From contig JANQKC010000024.1 of assembly GCA_028281325.1 (NCBI GenBank), positions 79,474 through 143,473 of the forward strand: a stretch of 64,000 nucleotides of DNA, written 5' to 3'. The notes beneath the pieces are model-generated. The model did no database searches. It was not told the origin of the DNA and saw nothing but the letters and a program-made list of their open reading frames with translations. The position numbers and the translations under genes are program-made. The stretch comes from Alphaproteobacteria bacterium. GTDB taxonomy: Bacteria; Pseudomonadota; Alphaproteobacteria; UBA8366. Positions within the stretch are counted from its first letter, which is position 1; each line of letters starts with the position of its first letter. This document shows positions 3,079 through 10,492 of this stretch, piece by piece.

Positions 3079-3098
3079 ACGGCCCGGCTATCGAAGGG

Positions 3099-3944
3099 AT
3101 GCCAACGATGAGCGAAGCGTCGGACATGGCCCTGCAGGCCGACCACGTCGAAGCGGAATTGAATTACATCGTGGACGATAGCATCCCGCCGGTCCGCTAT
3201 GTGGATTGGCCGGAAGAGGAACACAAGGCGCATATCCCGGAGTATGAGCCGCGCCGGGTCCGCATCCGTAACGGCCGCACGGCGGGCGAGGATTTCACCT
3301 TGCCGTCGCATGGGTTCCGGCTGGTGGACCATCCGACGAACGTAAAGAGTTTCCTCGACGAGGAGGAGATCAAGCGGGTGTACTACCCGGAGATCGAAGC
3401 GCTGATCCAAGCGGAGAGCGGGGCGCGCCGTGTTTTGGTATTCGACCACACGGTCCGCACGCCCGACACCGGCCAGCATGCGGAAGGGTGGGTGCGCGAC
3501 ACCGTCCGTTACGTTCACAACGACTATACCGAGACGTCAGCCCCGCAACGGGTGCGTGATTTCCTGCCGCCGGACGAAGCGGAAGAAGCATTGCGCCGCC
3601 GGTTCGCGATCATCCAGGTCTGGCGCTCGATCGCGCCGCGCGTGGAGTCCGAGCCGCTGGCCATGTGCGACGGGCGCACGATTCCCGAGGTCGGCTTCAT
3701 CCGCAACCAGCGGCGCTACCGCGACCGCACGGCGGAGACCTATCACATCGCCTACCACCCGGATCACCGCTGGTTCTACTTCCCGCTGATGACGCGGGAC
3801 GAGGCGATCGTGTTCAAGGTGTTCGACACGGACGCAAGCGCGGGCGTGCGCTTCACCGCGCACAGCGCCTTCGACGACCCAACCAGTCCGCCCGACGCCG
3901 CCATCCGGCAGAGCATCGAGATGCGGGCGCTGGCGTTCTTCTAG
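3099..3944 (+). CDS. CmcJ/NvfI-family oxidoreductase (7-alpha-cephem-methoxylase P8-chain-like)
   Basis: Motifs RVYYPE, VFDHTVR, HRWFYFP and ESIEMRALAFF match the CmcJ family as I recall it. An alternative start is at 3108. Confidence 0.55.
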   Translation: MPTMSEASDMALQADHVEAELNYIVDDSIPPVRYVDWPEEEHKAHIPEYEPRRVRIRNGRTAGEDFTLPSHGFRLVDHPTNVKSFLDEEEIKRVYYPEIEALIQAESGARRVLVFDHTVRTPDTGQHAEGWVRDTVRYVHNDYTETSAPQRVRDFLPPDEAEEALRRRFAIIQVWRSIAPRVESEPLAMCDGRTIPEVGFIRNQRRYRDRTAETYHIAYHPDHRWFYFPLMTRDEAIVFKVFDTDASAGVRFTAHSAFDDPTSPPDAAIRQSIEMRALAFF

Positions 3945-3947
3945 GGA

Positions 3948-4559
3948 TTACGCGCCCGAGGCGTTCGCCAGCGCGCGGTCGAGGAAGTCGAGCCGGTCCT
4001 GGCCCCAGAACAACTCGCCCTCGAAGACATAGGTCGGCGCGCCGAACACGCCGAGTTCTTCCACCTCGTCGGTGTTGCGCCGGTATTCCGCCACGACCGG
4101 GTCGCTCTTCTCGATGGCGATCAGCTCCGCGCCGTCCATGCCGTTCTCGTCGGCGATCGCCTTGCGGGTTTCCGGCAGCGCCACATTGCGTTCCTCCCAC
4201 CAGATGGCGCGCAGGATCGCATGCGACAGGCGCAGCGCGTCCAGCCCCAGCTGCTGCGCCGCGATCACCGTGTGGCCCGGCGTCTTGTTGTCCTTGGGCG
4301 GGTAGAAGCGTGGCTTCAGGTTCAGCGGCATGCCGAGATGTTTGCTCCAGCGCGCCAGCTCGACGCGGTGATAATCCTGGCGCGGCTGCGGCCTGGTCAG
4401 GATCGGGATGCCCCCGGTCTTCGGCGCGACCTCCTGGAAGTCATACGGCTTGAGGATGATCCGCGCGTGATGCCGCCGCGCGATCTCGACGATACGCGGC
4501 CCGGCGAAATACGCCCAGGGCGAGGAAAGGGAGTAGTAGCAGTCGACGGTGAGGGGCAT
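3948..4559 (-). CDS. 2-hydroxychromene-2-carboxylate isomerase family (DsbA-like thioredoxin fold)
   Basis: MPLTVDCYYSLSSPWAYF N-terminus and C-terminal GAPTYVFEGELFWGQDRLDFL match the family. The longer ORF to 4667 is probably an upstream extension. Confidence 0.7.
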   Translation of the reverse strand: MPLTVDCYYSLSSPWAYFAGPRIVEIARRHHARIILKPYDFQEVAPKTGGIPILTRPQPRQDYHRVELARWSKHLGMPLNLKPRFYPPKDNKTPGHTVIAAQQLGLDALRLSHAILRAIWWEERNVALPETRKAIADENGMDGAELIAIEKSDPVVAEYRRNTDEVEELGVFGAPTYVFEGELFWGQDRLDFLDRALANASGA

Positions 4560-4848
4560 AGTTGATCCGGAATTGGGTGGCGAGGATTTCATGATGGGGA
4601 AAAAGCGAATGAGAGGACAGTCGAATTTATTTGGCGCGCGCATGCGGGACGCCCCGATTACCTGCATCCCATGGCCACAGTTAGATGGTCTCCGGCACGC
4701 TATAATTTCGGCTGGTTGATGGCATTCGACCCAGTGCTTCCGGTGCGGCCATCGATGGCCAATACTCTGTTTACGTGTAAGGCTTTGGGTTTCAACTGGT
4801 TTTGGGCTTCGCTACGGTCACCATCCAAACTCCGCCGGGATTGGTAAA

Positions 4849-5889
4849 TTGAACGAAGAAATAACCGAAACATCACCGACAAGAACATCCAACGACCCGA
4901 TTTGGCCACCGCTGCCAGTCGGTCGAATAGACTGTTACTCTCGCTTGTGGCAACTAGAACTTTGGCTTCGCGAGCTTGTGTATGTGGAACTAAAGTCTCG
5001 ATACGGGGGTCAATGGACGCAGCAGATCGTTGGAGCCAGTATTTATGCCCAAAAGGCTGACAGAAGACTGACACATATGCCAACGCGAGAGCGGAGGCCG
5101 CTAAGTTACATCTCGTTTGATTCCCTGGTCAGGACAATAAGCAGACGTCGGCACCTATTTGCACCTTACCTCCCTATACGTTCGATCTGGGATGCCAAGC
5201 TAGATGAGGTGCGCCAAATCCGGAACCGTGTGGCCCACTTTCGACAGGGAAACGATGGGGATCTTCAGCGCGTCGATCAGCTATTAACTGATATTGACCC
5301 GGGGATTTGGCGCTTTTGCACCTCATACAATGATCATTTCCCAATTCTTCCTCCGAGTCGGGAGAAAGTTATAAAACAATTTATTGAACTGGATCCCTTC
5401 CCGTGGAGTCAGGTAGGTGACGGAGCATGGTCACGTGTCGGTATGGCCAGCCCCGATATGTTGTTAAGTGCGAATATTGAAGTGATTAGGCGACCGTGGC
5501 TTCGAGCGAAGTATCAAGGGCAAGTCGCCGGAAAATACGGATATCTTTTTGATATTAATATTCATGCAAGACAAAACAGGGTTTTCGAATATAAGAATTT
5601 TCTCAAAAACACTACTCATATTCACGATAGATGCTGCCATATTTTGCTCGATTCGTTCGGTACGACGATACGTGCGACATTGCCCTCCGTTTTGGGTGCT
5701 GCACAGATAACGGACACTGTTAACACGCTTATTGAGATGGGTAGGAGTGCGCTTAGACCGTCTCAAACTTTGCTGGAGATAAATAGGGTCGATTCATTAG
5801 CTAAAGACTGGCCCGAGTATGTCCTAGGTCCGGACCACCCGTTCTCTTTTCTCGGCCCAGATATGCCGTGCAAAATTTTCAGCATCTAA
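4849..5889 (+). CDS. HEPN-domain protein (Swt1-like, R-x4-H motif RNRVAH at 5221..5238) with an uncharacterised C-terminal half
   Basis: 346-aa ORF in the low-GC island with TTG start. It carries the canonical HEPN RNase motif R-N-R-V-A-H-F. The start codon is uncertain. Confidence 0.5.
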   Translation: MNEEITETSPTRTSNDPIWPPLPVGRIDCYSRLWQLELWLRELVYVELKSRYGGQWTQQIVGASIYAQKADRRLTHMPTRERRPLSYISFDSLVRTISRRRHLFAPYLPIRSIWDAKLDEVRQIRNRVAHFRQGNDGDLQRVDQLLTDIDPGIWRFCTSYNDHFPILPPSREKVIKQFIELDPFPWSQVGDGAWSRVGMASPDMLLSANIEVIRRPWLRAKYQGQVAGKYGYLFDINIHARQNRVFEYKNFLKNTTHIHDRCCHILLDSFGTTIRATLPSVLGAAQITDTVNTLIEMGRSALRPSQTLLEINRVDSLAKDWPEYVLGPDHPFSFLGPDMPCKIFSI

Positions 5890-6079
5890 GTGAATGCCGA
5901 TGTAATGATCAGCAGGCCGTTTTGGTGCTATTTCACTATGAAAAAATTGAATGCTGTAGCTGACCGAAAATTACGATGTCTTTGATAGTTGTTAGGACAA
6001 AGAAATTGTCTATTTGCAATAAGTTAAGGGTTGAGATGCAGTGTCATCCTGACTTGTATTGACCCGTAGATTCGACTGC

Positions 6080-6559
6080 TCACCTTAGGCCTGCCGCGTC
6101 CAACTGTCGTAGCAACAACGATGCGAGTGCTAGATGATCCAAGCAAGTGTCCGGATCGTCCGTCATTCCACTCGTATGCCCTCTCGGGTTTCGGATGCCC
6201 AGCATTGCGCCTGCGAACAAGAACTTGAAACCCTCTTGTTCATCCTTTTCAGACCTTGTCATCCCTGGATTTAGTGACACTTTTGGCGAACTTCCTCCGA
6301 GGGCGCTCATCATCAACTTGGTACCGTGGCTCGATGCTCCGGAGATACGCTGTATTTCTTCATCAACAAATTTGAAGGCCTCAAAAGTTGCTTGTGCACA
6401 GTGGCCATTATCAAATAGTCGCCTAACATCGTTCGGAAGGTCTGTATGGAGATTTCGCTCGTCAAAGGAATGTGCACTCGAGGGCCTGTCTACTCCCGCT
6501 TCAGTAAAGCGGTGCGCATTTCTTGCGATTCTTTCGAAGTCTTCGAAGTTACTCGCCAT
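6080..6559 (-). CDS. Hypoth_Ymh/TIGR02391-like HEPN protein (R-x4-H motif RNPRGH at 6176..6193)
   Basis: 159-aa ORF with the AMLGIRNPRGH motif. It overlaps the upstream gene by 11 nt, so they form an operon. Low GC. Confidence 0.5.
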   Translation of the reverse strand: MASNFEDFERIARNAHRFTEAGVDRPSSAHSFDERNLHTDLPNDVRRLFDNGHCAQATFEAFKFVDEEIQRISGASSHGTKLMMSALGGSSPKVSLNPGMTRSEKDEQEGFKFLFAGAMLGIRNPRGHTSGMTDDPDTCLDHLALASLLLRQLDAAGLR

Positions 6560-7226
6560 CGATTAGGTTTTTTCGAATACTTCGGAAGATCCTGTCATAT
6601 GTTTTTTGATCACCATCAGCCGGTAGGTTGACCTCTATACGAACAGTAAGTCCCACTCGGTGTTCTGGTTTCTCGGTTGTGCCAGTCGTATCTTTCTTTG
6701 ACTTCACAGATGCTGTGACCCGTTTCTTAGAGGATCTATCCGCACCCTTTTTCGATACCGGCCTGCGCTGATTGGTCTCTCGTGTTATTGGTACTTCCGC
6801 GTGACCTGAAAGTGCAGCGAGGTAGGTGAAAGTCCCAGCCTGTCTGGTTCCAACAATCTCGCTCGAATGATCTGAAGTGCGGAAGAACTGAGCTAAACTC
6901 GATCGATCCATATTCCACGCGTCGTCACCATGTAATTCAAATAGTTCCTCGTAAGCGGTCCGCACAATTTTCTCGAACTCTTTCTGAAACTCCTCGTCCT
7001 TGTGTTGAATGAAAGCGTTCGCGCATTCATCAACCTTCCTGCCTTCCTCATCAACAATGCCGAGGAATTTCAGCACATTGATGACGTAGCTTTCATTCTT
7101 CGGTGCCACGCCAAGCTTGCGAAGGGTTTCAGCTGTCACCTCTTGGGGAAAACTTCGACGCCGAAGGTGGTCGATCGTCTTTACCAGAGGGCCTGCGGAA
7201 GCTACGTACGGATACTTGTTTGCCAT
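6549..7226 (-). CDS. DUF5343-like protein, upstream partner of the HEPN gene
   Basis: N-terminus MANKYPYVASAGPLVKTI...FPQEVTAETLRKLG resembles DUF5343 from memory. The C-terminal half is a Lys/Ser/Thr-rich low-complexity tail. Confidence 0.45.
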   Translation of the reverse strand: MANKYPYVASAGPLVKTIDHLRRRSFPQEVTAETLRKLGVAPKNESYVINVLKFLGIVDEEGRKVDECANAFIQHKDEEFQKEFEKIVRTAYEELFELHGDDAWNMDRSSLAQFFRTSDHSSEIVGTRQAGTFTYLAALSGHAEVPITRETNQRRPVSKKGADRSSKKRVTASVKSKKDTTGTTEKPEHRVGLTVRIEVNLPADGDQKTYDRIFRSIRKNLIDGE

Positions 7227-7619
7227 TATACGCTTCGCCTCTATCTAGCACCCATGCTTCGTGTGTTTAGGCAGCCGAACATAGGTAGTATTGTAACATT
7301 ATAAGATTTACTCTCTTTTTGATTGCATAACTCAATTTTAGGCAGAGTGACAAATCCAATCTACTATTTTTAATGTGTAATCAAAGCTCTATGGACGATA
7401 CGGAAAATTAGTGTTGACGATCAGCATATTTGAATCGATAGAAATCTAATAATTACAATATGTTAATAGTAATTCTTAGTTGTATATTTGCTTATTTATC
7501 GGTCGACCTAGCAGATTTTGAAATCGCATTCTCCGAGATTCTCTGCACTATTTGCAGCGACACCGAATCACTAGAACGCTAAATTTCGCACAACAATAGA
7601 CACTTCTGGGTGGGGAAGA

Positions 7620-9218
7620 ATGCAGGCGGATTATGTGATCGTGGGGGCCGGGTCGGCGGGGTGCGTGTTGGCGAACCGGTTGAGCGCCGATGGCGCGCGG
7701 GTCGTGTTGCTGGAGGCGGGGCCGCCCGACCGCAACCCGATGATCCATATCCCGGCCGGGGTGCGCACGCTGATGCAGCATCCAGTGATCAACTGGAATT
7801 ACACGTCGGAGCCCGAGGAAGGCACCGCCGACCGGCGCGTCAACTGGCCGCGCGGCAAGACGCTGGGCGGCTCCAGCGCGATCAACGGCATGCTCTATGT
7901 GCGCGGCAACCCGGCGGATTACGACGGCTGGGCGCAGCGCGGCTGCCGTGGCTGGGCCTATGACGAGGTGTTGCCCTATTTCAAGAAATCCGAGGATTTT
8001 CGCGGCGACGGCGATGCCGCCTACCGCAGCCGGGGCGGCGTGCTGGCGGTCGAGAATTATCGGACGATCCTGCCGCTGACGCATAAGTTCGTCGAGGCGG
8101 CGCAGCAAGCGGGGTTCCCGCTGACGCCGGATTACAACGGCGCGCAGCAGGAAGGCGTCGCCTATTCGCAGATGACGCGGAACAAGCGCTTCCGGGCGTC
8201 GACCGCGCGCAGCTTCCTGGCCGAAGCGCGGCCGCGCGAAAACCTGGAGGTGGTGACCGAGGCCGTCGGCACGGGCTTGCTGTTCGACGGCACGCGTTGC
8301 GTCGGCGCGACCTACCGGCAGGGCGGTGAAGATAAAGAGGTGCGCGCCAATCGCGAGGTCATCGTCTCCGGCGGCGCGGTGAACTCGCCGCATCTTCTGC
8401 ACGTCTCGGGCATCGGCCCCGCCGACCATCTGCAATCCATCGGCGTGCCGGTGCGGCACGACCTGCCCGGTGTCGGCGGCAACCTGCAGGACCACTACGT
8501 GGTCCGTATCTCGCACCGGGTCGAAGGGCTGACGTCGATCAACGAGTTGGCGCGGGTTCCCCGCGTGCTGCCGGAGATCGCCCGGTATTTCCTGTTCGGG
8601 GACGGCGCGCTCACCTTCGGCGTGACGGCGGCGATGGTGTTCACCCGCAGCCGCGAGGGGCTGAGCAGCCCGGACCTGCAGCTCCTTTTCACCCCGGCGA
8701 GCTACGACGCGGTCGAGATCAAGTCCTTCGACAAGGAACCGGGCATGACCATCGCGGTCTGCCCCGTCCGGCCCGAGAGCCGGGGCACGATCATGGCGGC
8801 GAGCGCCGACCCGCTGCAGGCGCCGGCGATCCGGCCGAATTACCTGTCGGCGGAAAGCGACGCCCATGTCCTGCATGCGGGGCTGGAGAAATGCCGCAGC
8901 ATCTTCGCCGCCCCCGCGCTGGCCGAGGTGAGCAAGGGCGAACTCGCGCCGGGGCCGGAGGTGAATTCGGTGGAGACGGTGCGCGAATACACCCGCCACA
9001 AGGGCAACACGCTGTACCATCCGGTCGGCACCTGCAAGATGGGCGACGACCCGATGGCGGTGGTCGACGACCGGTTGCGGGTCCATGGCGTCCAAGGATT
9101 GCGGGTGATCGACGCCTCGATCATGCCGACCCTGACCACCGGCAACACCAACGCGCCCACCATCATGATCGCCGAGAAGGGCGCGGACATGATCCTGGAG
9201 GACAACACGGCGGCGTGA
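7620..9218 (+). CDS. GMC-family oxidoreductase (choline dehydrogenase-like)
   Basis: N-terminal FAD fold [19 protein letters not shown], full-length GMC architecture and a good SD (gggtggggaaga). Confidence 0.85.
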
Positions 9219-9382
9219 CGGCCTGGATTCCGGGCCTTTCCCTTACCCGAATGCGCCCATTCACCCGTATAAAAAGTTAATCGCCCCGCCGAAACCCGGA
9301 TGCTATCTTATCGCCGCGCGGGCCGGGGTCGGCCTGCGACTCCGACATTTCTGACTGTGATTTTGGACCGAGGAAACGCGTA

Positions 9383-10294
9383 ATGACGGCACCAGCGACC
9401 ATGACCGGGGTTTTGACACCCGTCGTGACCCCCTTCGATGACGATCTCAAGCCGGACGCGGCGCGCCTGCTGAAGCAGTGCCAATGGCTGCAGTCGAACA
9501 ACTGCGGCCTCGCGATCTTCGGCACCAACAGCGAAGGCAACTCTATGTCGACCGCCGAGCGCATCATGCTGATGGAAGCGCTGGTCGACGGCGGGATCGA
9601 CGCGGCGGAACTGATGCCAGGCACCGGCTGCTGCGCGCTGACCGATTCGGTCGAACTGTCGAAACGCGCGACCGACCTCGGCTGCGGCGGCGTGCTGATG
9701 CTGCCGCCCTTCTATTACAAGGGCGCGGACGACGACGCGCTCTATCGCAGTTATGCGGAGATCATCCAGCGGGTCGGCGACGACAAGTTGAAGATCTATC
9801 TCTATCACATCCCGCAGGTCTCGAATGTCCCGATCACGCTGACGTTGATCGAGAAGCTGGTGAAGGATTTTCCCGACACGGTGGTCGGCATCAAGGACAG
9901 CTCCGGCGACTGGAGCAACACCAAGGCGATGCTCGACAACTTCCCCGGCTTCGGCGTGTTCGCCGGGAGCGAGACCTTCCTGCTGCAGAATATGCGGAAC
10001 GGCGGAGTCGGCTGCATCTCGGCGACCGCAAACATCAATCCGGGCGCGATCCACGCGCTGTATGCGACATGGCAGAACGACGATGCCGACGATCAACAGG
10101 CCCGTCTCGATGAGGTCCGCGGCGTGTTCGAAGGGTTCCCGATGATCCCGGCGATGAAGGCGGCGATCGCCCATTTCGCCGGCGACGGCGTGTGGAAGAA
10201 CGTGCGCCCGCCGCTGATGAACCTGCCCGACGATGCGACCAACAAGCTGCTGGCGGAACTGGACCGCATTTCCTTCAAGATCGAAGGCGTTTAG
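9383..10294 (+). CDS. Dihydrodipicolinate synthase/N-acetylneuraminate lyase family (DapA-like aldolase)
   Basis: Class I aldolase features including the GIKDSSGD Schiff-base lysine region. SD is gaggaaacg. Confidence 0.8.
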   Translation: MTAPATMTGVLTPVVTPFDDDLKPDAARLLKQCQWLQSNNCGLAIFGTNSEGNSMSTAERIMLMEALVDGGIDAAELMPGTGCCALTDSVELSKRATDLGCGGVLMLPPFYYKGADDDALYRSYAEIIQRVGDDKLKIYLYHIPQVSNVPITLTLIEKLVKDFPDTVVGIKDSSGDWSNTKAMLDNFPGFGVFAGSETFLLQNMRNGGVGCISATANINPGAIHALYATWQNDDADDQQARLDEVRGVFEGFPMIPAMKAAIAHFAGDGVWKNVRPPLMNLPDDATNKLLAELDRISFKIEGV

Positions 10295-10308
10295 CCGCCC
10301 GCATCTTG

Positions 10309-10492
10309 TCATCCCCGTGAAAACGGGAATCCATGCGATCCGGTGCCTGGTTTCCCGCTTTCGCGGGAATGACGACGCATGGCGAAGGCAATATGGATTT
10401 GTGCGTAATCGGCATGCTTCGACAGGCTCAGCATGAGGGTTGAGCCAGCTAGAGGCAGAACACGATCCTCATCCTGAGCCCGTCGAAGGATG
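10309..10492. repeat. Mosaic palindromic intergenic repeat (REP/RIME-like), copy 1, with modules A' and A (cccgYgaaaRcggg hairpins) plus B (catgcttcgacaggctcagcatgaggg) and inverted B'
   Basis: The same modules recur at 45101..45212. It fills the whole gap between convergent genes and forms long hairpins. The minus-strand translation gives the spurious MLSLSKH ORF. Confidence 0.6.

Follow-up and report, generated by a model that had tools for sequence, protein, structure and literature searches.

The sequence analysed here, referred to as the window, was a 64-kb stretch (64,000 nucleotides) of contig JANQKC010000024.1 in assembly GCA_028281325.1, an Alphaproteobacteria bacterium of the lineage UBA8366. 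It carried a small island with three genes, flanked by a DsbA-like and a GMC oxidoreductase gene. A 346-aa protein with a putative HEPN domain was encoded on the plus strand. Two overlapping genes on the minus strand, convergent to it, encoded a DUF5343 protein and, directly downstream, a HEPN protein of the Ymh type. A preliminary description of the locus had proposed that the three genes form one defence or abortive-infection module. It is instead probable that two independent conflict modules based on HEPN RNases, a DUF5343-Ymh dyad and a solitary 346-aa effector, lie side by side in a small acquired insertion. The positions of all features are given in Table 1.

The island is a horizontally acquired insertion. 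Its empty site was present in a related genome, L134 (5.3-Mb contig, approximately 90% nucleotide identity in the flanks), where the DsbA-like and GMC oxidoreductase genes were divergent neighbours with 153 bp between them (L134 5844-5996). Using blastn, L134 4373-5843 was aligned with window 3089-4559 and L134 5997-8699 with window 7616-10317 at 90% identity. The breakpoints were thereby placed at 4559/4560 and 7615/7616, and the entire 153-bp spacer between the start codons was swapped for the island. The GC content of the window averaged 63% with only one marked dip, at approximately 4.6-7.6 kb. The 346-aa, DUF5343 and Ymh genes had 47.9%, 48.7% and 50.4% GC, respectively, compared with 65-66% in the flanks, and the island as a whole lay 18 points under its flanks. 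Horizontal acquisition, as first proposed, was thus borne out by the empty site and the GC drop. The preliminary description was right about the dip and about flanks of 65% GC, but its value of about 40% was too low for the whole island, which has exactly 47.0%; the genes lie at 48-50% and only the AT-rich spacers at 36-40%. Likewise, the island is real but its extent, given as 4690-7600 (2.9 kb), was corrected by the empty-site comparison to 4560-7615 (3,056 bp).

The two minus-strand genes were strictly linked. An alignment of DUF5343 was scanned against one genome per species, which resulted in 50 loci. A Ymh orthologue was detected with phmmer directly downstream of DUF5343 in 49 of these, the exception being a degraded copy at a contig end. 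Of further Ymh-subfamily members located on long contigs, 3/3 had DUF5343 immediately upstream. These results established the DUF5343 gene as a genuine operon partner of Ymh. The 50 loci were distributed over Alpha- and Gammaproteobacteria, Acidobacteriota, Nitrospirota, Bacteroidota, Planctomycetota, Actinomycetota, Chloroflexota and others. All-against-all clustering of open reading frames (ORFs) within approximately 6 kb yielded DUF5343 and Ymh as the sole conserved genes; as candidates for a third conserved gene, it returned only antisense shadow ORFs. The layout described earlier, an overlapping two-gene operon on the minus strand that converges with the plus-strand gene, was confirmed with an overlap of 11 nt (6549-6559). 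This overlap is consistent with translational coupling, and overlaps of 8-17 nt were typical across the 49 other loci. Over 39 pairs, the matrices of pairwise identity for DUF5343 and for Ymh were correlated with r = 0.73.

The distribution of the pair was patchy over many phyla, at 45-75% identity and with a GC content under that of the host (3-20 points under the flanks in most high-GC hosts), which indicates horizontal spread and not vertical inheritance as a housekeeping operon. Neighbours of the pair were mostly housekeeping genes, with few IS200, integrase, Phd/YefM and Mrr genes. One copy adjoined type I restriction-modification genes and another BrnT/BrnA. Among 1.84 billion cluster representatives, approximately 1,100 belonged to the DUF5343 family. 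No DUF5343-HEPN fusion was found among the best 150 cluster representatives, in which the longer proteins carried the DUF5343 domain only.

Several copies of the pair were irregular. Those at eight loci (L005, L012, L042, L045, L046, L047, L050 and L052) seemed to be fragmented or to carry frameshifts, in many cases in metagenome-assembled genomes from long reads, and represent either pseudogenes or assembly errors. In some of the eight, DUF5343 was seemingly broken and Ymh seemingly intact. In a Fibrobacter contig (L023, 126-2458), the gene after DUF5343 encoded 443 aa, with the first two-thirds of a Ymh domain (profile positions 1-87 of 119, which exclude the R-x4-H part) fused to a PNP_UDP_1 phosphorylase domain. 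A second, partial DUF5343 gene followed. This arrangement may reflect the exchange of an effector or an error of assembly.

The Ymh-type protein was firmly assigned to its family. It matched PF09509 (Hypoth_Ymh) over profile positions 1-119 of 119 with E 2.7e-31 and 108.3 bits (cut-off 25), and TIGR02391 with E 9e-23 and 80.7 bits (cut-off 39.45). Together with the Pfam match of its partner to DUF5343, this confirmed the predicted order of a DUF5343-like gene followed by a Ymh-type HEPN gene with the motif RNPRGH. Homologues of Ymh numbered 848. R123, N124, P125, R126 and H128 were invariant in 26 Ymh partners of DUF5343 and at least 95% conserved in 47. By motif and family, the protein is a putative catalytically competent HEPN RNase. 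The Ymh family was classed as catalytically active in a census of HEPN proteins, in which its members occur alone or fused to paraMORC, AbiJ-NTD and AbiTii modules and in restriction-modification contexts (PMC3710099).

The DUF5343 protein consisted of a confidently modelled N-domain, a variable disordered linker and a short C-terminal element. Column identity was 0.63 in the N-domain, 0.27 in the linker and 0.82 in the C-terminal element of 35 residues, which was the most conserved part. One copy was disrupted at this element. In a metagenome-assembled genome of the Vicinamibacterales (L049, 6600-7860), a 402-aa transposase-like ORF of an insertion sequence (IS) lay within DUF5343 at …RVGLTVR|.

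The third gene, predicted earlier as a plus-strand ORF with the motif RNRVAH, was present at 4849-5889 with the motif at residues 125-130. Its putative HEPN domain spanned approximately residues 25-160 and was followed at approximately 165-346 by an alpha/beta domain of no known function. Full-length homologues numbered 238 and were approximately 340-360 aa long. R125, R127, A129 and H130 were invariant in an alignment of 25 family members. A near-invariant WPEYVLGP was located close to the C-terminus, with W321, P322 and E323 invariant. The automatic gene call in a public collection started at the first ATG and gave 270 aa (L001, 3240-4052), by which the first HEPN helix is lost. The alignment with 24 homologues, including its N-terminal part, favours the long form with the TTG start, and the 270-aa call is considered truncated. 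The match to PF18731 (HEPN_Swt1) was weak, with 20.6 bits (E 5.5e-4) under the cut-off of 27.5. Homologues at 45-50% identity carried precomputed PF18731 matches, L111 reached 31.1 bits, and some relatives were named 'Swt1 family HEPN domain-containing protein' by NCBI. An AlphaFold2 model of the 346-aa protein (confidence score, pLDDT, 86.7) was all-helical over residues 26-159 with an alpha/beta C-domain.

No neighbour was conserved across the 346-aa family in 80 metagenome loci. Restriction-modification, Gabija-like and other defence genes were its usual company; its neighbourhoods were rich in defence models, including GajA, MADS, Mrr, CAP12 TIR and patatin, and 316 PADLOC families were matched. 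The three closest relatives (61-66% identity) were located beside Dcm/Vsr/EcoRII and an OLD-like ATPase, beside type I restriction-modification and Abi_C genes, and in a conjugation-type region, respectively. N-terminal fusions to TIR_2, to the BrnA antitoxin domain (several proteins of approximately 441 aa) and to the effector-associated domain EAD5 were observed (L111 1282-3045; P0233, P0238), and these are consistent with a family of conflict-system effectors. The 346-aa protein has the appearance of a HEPN effector that consists of one gene only and carries a C-terminal domain of no known function. In a distant sub-clade with 39-43% identity (L077, L085, L093, L096, L098 and L102), an AIG2/GGACT-like gene (gamma-glutamyl cyclotransferase fold) was located directly upstream on the same strand, sometimes overlapping, which suggests a two-gene variant of the family. 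The window contained no remnant of such a partner. An RNA antitoxin, as in type III toxin-antitoxin or AbiF-like systems, was also considered for the 346-aa gene. No Rfam family or tandem repeat was detected, and no conserved non-coding sequence was present up- or downstream of the gene among 64-65 loci, findings with which a fast-evolving RNA is still compatible.

In the other genomes and contigs searched, the pair and the 346-aa gene were never found together. A homologue of the 346-aa protein was present near the DUF5343-Ymh pair in 0/49 pair loci and on 0/3 of the additional contigs. Conversely, DUF5343 was present near a gene of the 346-aa family in 0/80 metagenome loci and at 0/3 of the closest relatives; a Ymh-type ORF was nearby in 1/80. 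The check for co-occurrence across genomes was therefore passed strongly by DUF5343 and Ymh, but the set of three was seen nowhere else. As a lack of co-occurrence in other genomes had been named beforehand as grounds for rejection, the proposal of one three-gene module fails. That the island holds two different HEPN families held up. No profile-profile relation was found between them (hhalign probability 0.5%), and each had its own conserved R-x4-H.

Table 1. Features of the inserted island and its borders in the window.
Feature	Position	Strand	Remarks
Inserted island	4560..7615		3,056 bp, 47.0% GC; takes the place of the native 153-bp divergent spacer
DsbA-like gene	start codon at 4559	-	left flank of the island
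346-aa protein (HEPN346)	4849..5889	+	TTG start; putative N-terminal Swt1/Abi2-type HEPN and C-terminal alpha/beta domain
R-x4-H motif RNRVAH (R125-H130)	5221..5238	+	putative RNase active site, read from the sequence
Convergent spacer	5890..6079		190 bp, 39.5% GC; between the stop codons of the 346-aa and Ymh genes
159-aa Ymh-type HEPN protein	6080..6559	-	downstream gene of the pair; putative RNase toxin/effector; Pfam PF09509, TIGR02391
R-x4-H motif RNPRGH (R123-H128)	6176..6193	-	read from the sequence
Overlap of DUF5343 gene end and Ymh gene start	6549..6559	-	11 nt
225-aa DUF5343 protein	6549..7226	-	upstream gene of the pair; Pfam DUF5343, E 2e-14
DUF5343, C-terminal strand-plus-helix element	6552..6656 (residues 191-225)	-	consensus VGLTVRIEVNLPAxGDQxTYDRIFxSIRKNLIDG
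DUF5343, basic K/S/P-rich disordered linker	6657..6803 (residues 142-190)	-	variable; pLDDT <50 over residues 149-188
DUF5343, winged-helix and helical N-domain	6804..7226 (residues 1-141)	-	confidently modelled
AT-rich spacer	7227..7615		36.5% GC; upstream of the DUF5343-Ymh operon, now also precedes the GMC gene
GMC oxidoreductase gene	ATG at 7620		right flank of the island

The most reasonable reading of the three genes is a role in conflict systems, be it in defence, abortive infection or toxin-antitoxin systems. The pair resembles a dyad of the toxin-antitoxin or abortive-infection kind and had the layout of type II toxin-antitoxin systems, a compact overlapping operon with DUF5343 (approximately 225 aa) first and Ymh (approximately 159 aa) second. 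In HEPN dyads, the 5' gene was argued to be the antitoxin, a logic applied to MNT-HEPN and ParA-HEPN (PMC3710099). Taken together, the anatomy of the two proteins, the active-family class of Ymh and this logic of the 5' antitoxin point to a toxin-antitoxin or abortive-infection dyad with DUF5343 as the gate on the Ymh RNase. The partner resembles an antitoxin or regulator in its 5' position, its disordered basic linker and its C-terminal element, which was more conserved than the fold domain.

The first module (6080-7226, minus strand) would accordingly be a cassette of two genes that is complete in itself, has been transferred widely and is built like a type II toxin-antitoxin or abortive-infection dyad. 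DUF5343 would serve as the dedicated and translationally coupled partner, composed of a winged-helix domain for nucleic-acid binding, a basic linker and a near-invariant C-terminal element. It would keep the Ymh RNase inactive and probably autoregulate the operon. Upon loss, titration or modification of DUF5343, for instance by phage infection or loss of the cassette, the Ymh RNase would be freed to cleave RNA of the cell or the phage, and growth would stop. The second module (4849-5889, plus strand) would be a solitary HEPN RNase of the Swt1/Abi2 clade fused to an alpha/beta C-domain, which may be a sensor or autoinhibitor, with an action like that of AbiD/AbiF. We infer the RNase activity, the toxicity, the neutralisation by DUF5343, the roles of the C-terminal parts and a phage phenotype from these comparisons.

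Several observations weigh against the reading as two conflict modules. The defence-island signal of the pair was weak, as its neighbours matched 32 PADLOC families compared with 316 for the 346-aa family. DUF5343 was not found in phage, plasmid and IMG/VR collections, and a search of PHROGs returned nothing useful. The regions upstream of the pair could not be aligned between loci, and no conserved operator or promoter was detected in them. An antitoxin role for DUF5343 is inferred from anatomy alone. Its C-terminal element also aligned to the A component of PDC-M34, a catalogued two-gene candidate whose partner belongs to another HEPN family. The element may therefore serve dimerisation or nucleic-acid binding and not toxin binding. 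In L049, the IS cut off this element while the downstream Ymh gene and its RNPRGH were intact, which is hard to reconcile with a simple antitoxin model, except if the IS is polar on Ymh expression. For the 346-aa protein, HEPN support was modest with a sub-threshold Pfam score, Foldseek with its model against the PDB gave nothing significant, and a profile search of the PDB gave no match. Sequence and profile searches identified no solved structure for any of the three island proteins. The HEPN domain of the 346-aa protein also resembles PDC-M34B, and its gene lies two genes from the M34A-like gene; in this particular genome, the two may therefore be functionally linked. With regard to novelty, the island fits the familiar theme of a HEPN toxin with a partner in a foreign island and is no new category.

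Among the alternatives, the pair may be a sensor-effector system of abortive infection, which we consider unlikely but by no means negligible. DUF5343 would sense phage DNA, RNA or protein through its winged helix and linker and then activate the Ymh RNase, as a counterpart on a separate polypeptide of the AbiJ-NTD, AbiTii and paraMORC domains that are fused to Ymh elsewhere. Fusions of Ymh to N-terminal sensor or regulatory domains in other proteins fit this proposal (PMC3710099), as do PD-Lambda-3_B and Aga_HEPN, in which the Ymh domain is C-terminal to other modules. PDC-M34 was found embedded in defence systems, and the broken DUF5343 next to an intact Ymh in L049 would be tolerable if Ymh is inactive without its partner. 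The overlapping order with the partner first and the solitary insertion among housekeeping genes are, however, more typical of toxin-antitoxin systems, and the enrichment of defence genes around the pair was weak. The antitoxin and sensor models overlap and cannot be separated in silico.

It is very improbable that all three genes constitute one defence or abortive-infection system, either with DUF5343 as the shared partner or regulator of both HEPN proteins or as a PDC-M34 system of DUF5343 and the 346-aa protein with an extra Ymh. The genes do share one 3,056-bp insertion of uniform GC. Moreover, DUF5343 matched PDC-M34A (E 6.5e-27) and residues 29-148 of the 346-aa protein matched PDC-M34B (E 2.9e-12), better than they matched Pfam HEPN_Swt1. 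The absence of co-occurrence at all pair loci, extra contigs and loci of the 346-aa family speaks against such a system. Furthermore, the 346-aa gene is convergent, unlike the co-oriented A>>B of PDC-M34, its product has 346 aa with an extra domain compared with 147-192 positions in the M34B profiles, and DUF5343 is already translationally coupled to Ymh. A function outside conflict, with DUF5343 as an ordinary transcription factor, Ymh as a non-toxic protein of RNA binding or processing (compare the HEPN-fold regulator MtlR) and the 346-aa protein likewise, would suit the mostly housekeeping neighbours, the lack of phage or plasmid carriage in the collections searched and the existence of HEPN families that are non-catalytic regulators (PMC3710099), but it is most unlikely given the invariant R-x4-H in both HEPN proteins, the patchy multi-phylum spread at 45-75% identity with sub-host GC and several degraded or frameshifted copies, and relatives that match defence-system models and adjoin restriction-modification systems.

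The insertion also affected the flanking genes. The DsbA-like and GMC oxidoreductase genes wholly lost the divergent promoter region that they natively shared, and no homology to the native 153-bp spacer was left in the island in comparison with L134. Both host genes must therefore now be transcribed from island sequence (4560-4848 and 7227-7615). The promoter of the DUF5343-Ymh operon must also sit in 7227-7615. One sigma-70-like site was found (7430-7459, plus strand), facing the GMC gene, a count that was not above chance. A consensus scan of 5890-6079 detected no terminator-like site. Searches of the island ends for signs of mobile elements revealed no tRNA, integrase or meaningful direct or inverted repeat, and no tandem repeats or Rfam families were present in 4400-7800. 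L134 carried an additional gene of approximately 1.2 kb (L134 3158-4372; 389 aa, Ala_racemase_N and D-serine dehydratase domains) between a CoA-transferase gene and a YDMC-family gene. Its absence at window 3086-3089 represents a second indel between both genomes near the island.

HEPN RNases are recurrent effectors in toxin-antitoxin, abortive-infection, CRISPR and restriction-linked immunity. To our knowledge, silencing is understood for few HEPN families only, by MNT AMPylation, RnlB, a non-coding RNA (AbiF) or cyclic oligoadenylates (Csm6/Csx1). The DUF5343-Ymh dyad is compact (1.15 kb) and has a new type of partner protein. With its strict linkage, its presence in many phyla and this partner, it is the more interesting of both modules. 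Possibly, although we would not yet favour it, DUF5343 is an exchangeable HEPN partner, combined with Ymh here and with a HEPN of the Swt1 clade in PDC-M34, whose same C-terminal element gates different HEPN families. If so, this would be a new superfamily of toxin-antitoxin or abortive-infection systems, in which neutralisation or activation differs mechanistically from MNT and RnlB. As a general gatekeeper of two HEPN families, DUF5343 would add to the known control mechanisms and offer a two-gene system that is tractable for experiments. Apart from the HEPN census of 2013 and the PADLOC preprint, literature searches on DUF5343, PDC-M34, TIGR02391 and Swt1-like HEPN found nothing.

Among known systems, the 346-aa gene is comparable to AbiD/AbiF of the Abi2 clade (PbAbiF-ncRNA structure 8vz6). 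Both are single genes without a family-wide partner, and the 346-aa family is located in defence-island neighbourhoods. In contrast to AbiD/AbiF, the 346-aa protein had no Pfam Abi_2 match, a different C-terminal alpha/beta domain and no detectable conserved upstream non-coding RNA. Its sequence similarity to the Abi2 clade is too low for family membership.

The pair shares with HEPN-MNT (HepT/MntA) and RnlA-RnlB/LsoA-LsoB the organisation as a two-gene dyad, a HEPN R-x4-H RNase as toxin (putative in the pair) and the occurrence in mobile chromosomal cassettes. As in HEPN-MNT, the partner gene is upstream (PMC3710099). The pair differs in its winged-helix DUF5343 partner, which is neither an AMPylating nucleotidyltransferase nor RnlB, and in its HEPN of the Ymh family; neutralisation is putative here. 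All 26 Ymh partners examined matched the C-terminal 130 positions of PD-Lambda-3_B and Aga_HEPN in PADLOC-DB (best E 5e-19 and 5e-15, respectively). In those proteins, the Ymh domain is fused C-terminally to other modules (profiles of 222-382 positions), whereas here it is a stand-alone protein of 159 aa accompanied by DUF5343. The partners in those systems also differ, and PD-lambda-3 has been listed under a PD-(D/E)XK nuclease domain (review PMC10952713).

The closest catalogued relative of the pair was PDC-M34, a PADLOC two-gene candidate without experimental test (FAM_01148>>FAM_01657). It is one of 145 'guilt-by-embedding' candidates derived from BREX, DISARM and type I restriction-modification loci, and the supplementary table gives 97 beside it, read here as the occurrence count in RefSeq (Payne et al., bioRxiv 10.1101/2024.01.29.577857). 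Such embedding was not found in the window, where the flanks are DsbA-like and GMC oxidoreductase genes, and restriction-modification neighbours at other pair loci were only occasional (type I at L141, one Mrr). Both pairs have A then B on one strand, an A of the DUF5343 type and a small HEPN as B. They differ in B, which is Ymh (PF09509) here, while M34B resembles the HEPN domain of the 346-aa protein. Using the PDC-M34 profiles of PADLOC-DB 2.0, residues 1-221 of the window DUF5343 were aligned to positions 1-207 of 208 of the M34A model PDLC04589. The match was only moderate (93 bits), so the protein is assigned to a different subfamily. M34A was matched over its full length, C-terminal element included, by 23/23 DUF5343 relatives. 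Not one of 26 Ymh partners matched any M34B model at E <= 0.01, and the window Ymh gave none at E <= 1. Because A matches and the Ymh partners do not fit M34B, the pair is not PDC-M34 as defined but a sibling with a swapped HEPN. As an M34A-like DUF5343 and an M34B-like 346-aa protein lie in one island, automated tools might merge both into a false PDC-M34 call. The statement that the island matches no named system is therefore correct only in part, as its DUF5343 protein matches the A component of a catalogued candidate. The functions of both modules are putative assignments from sequence.

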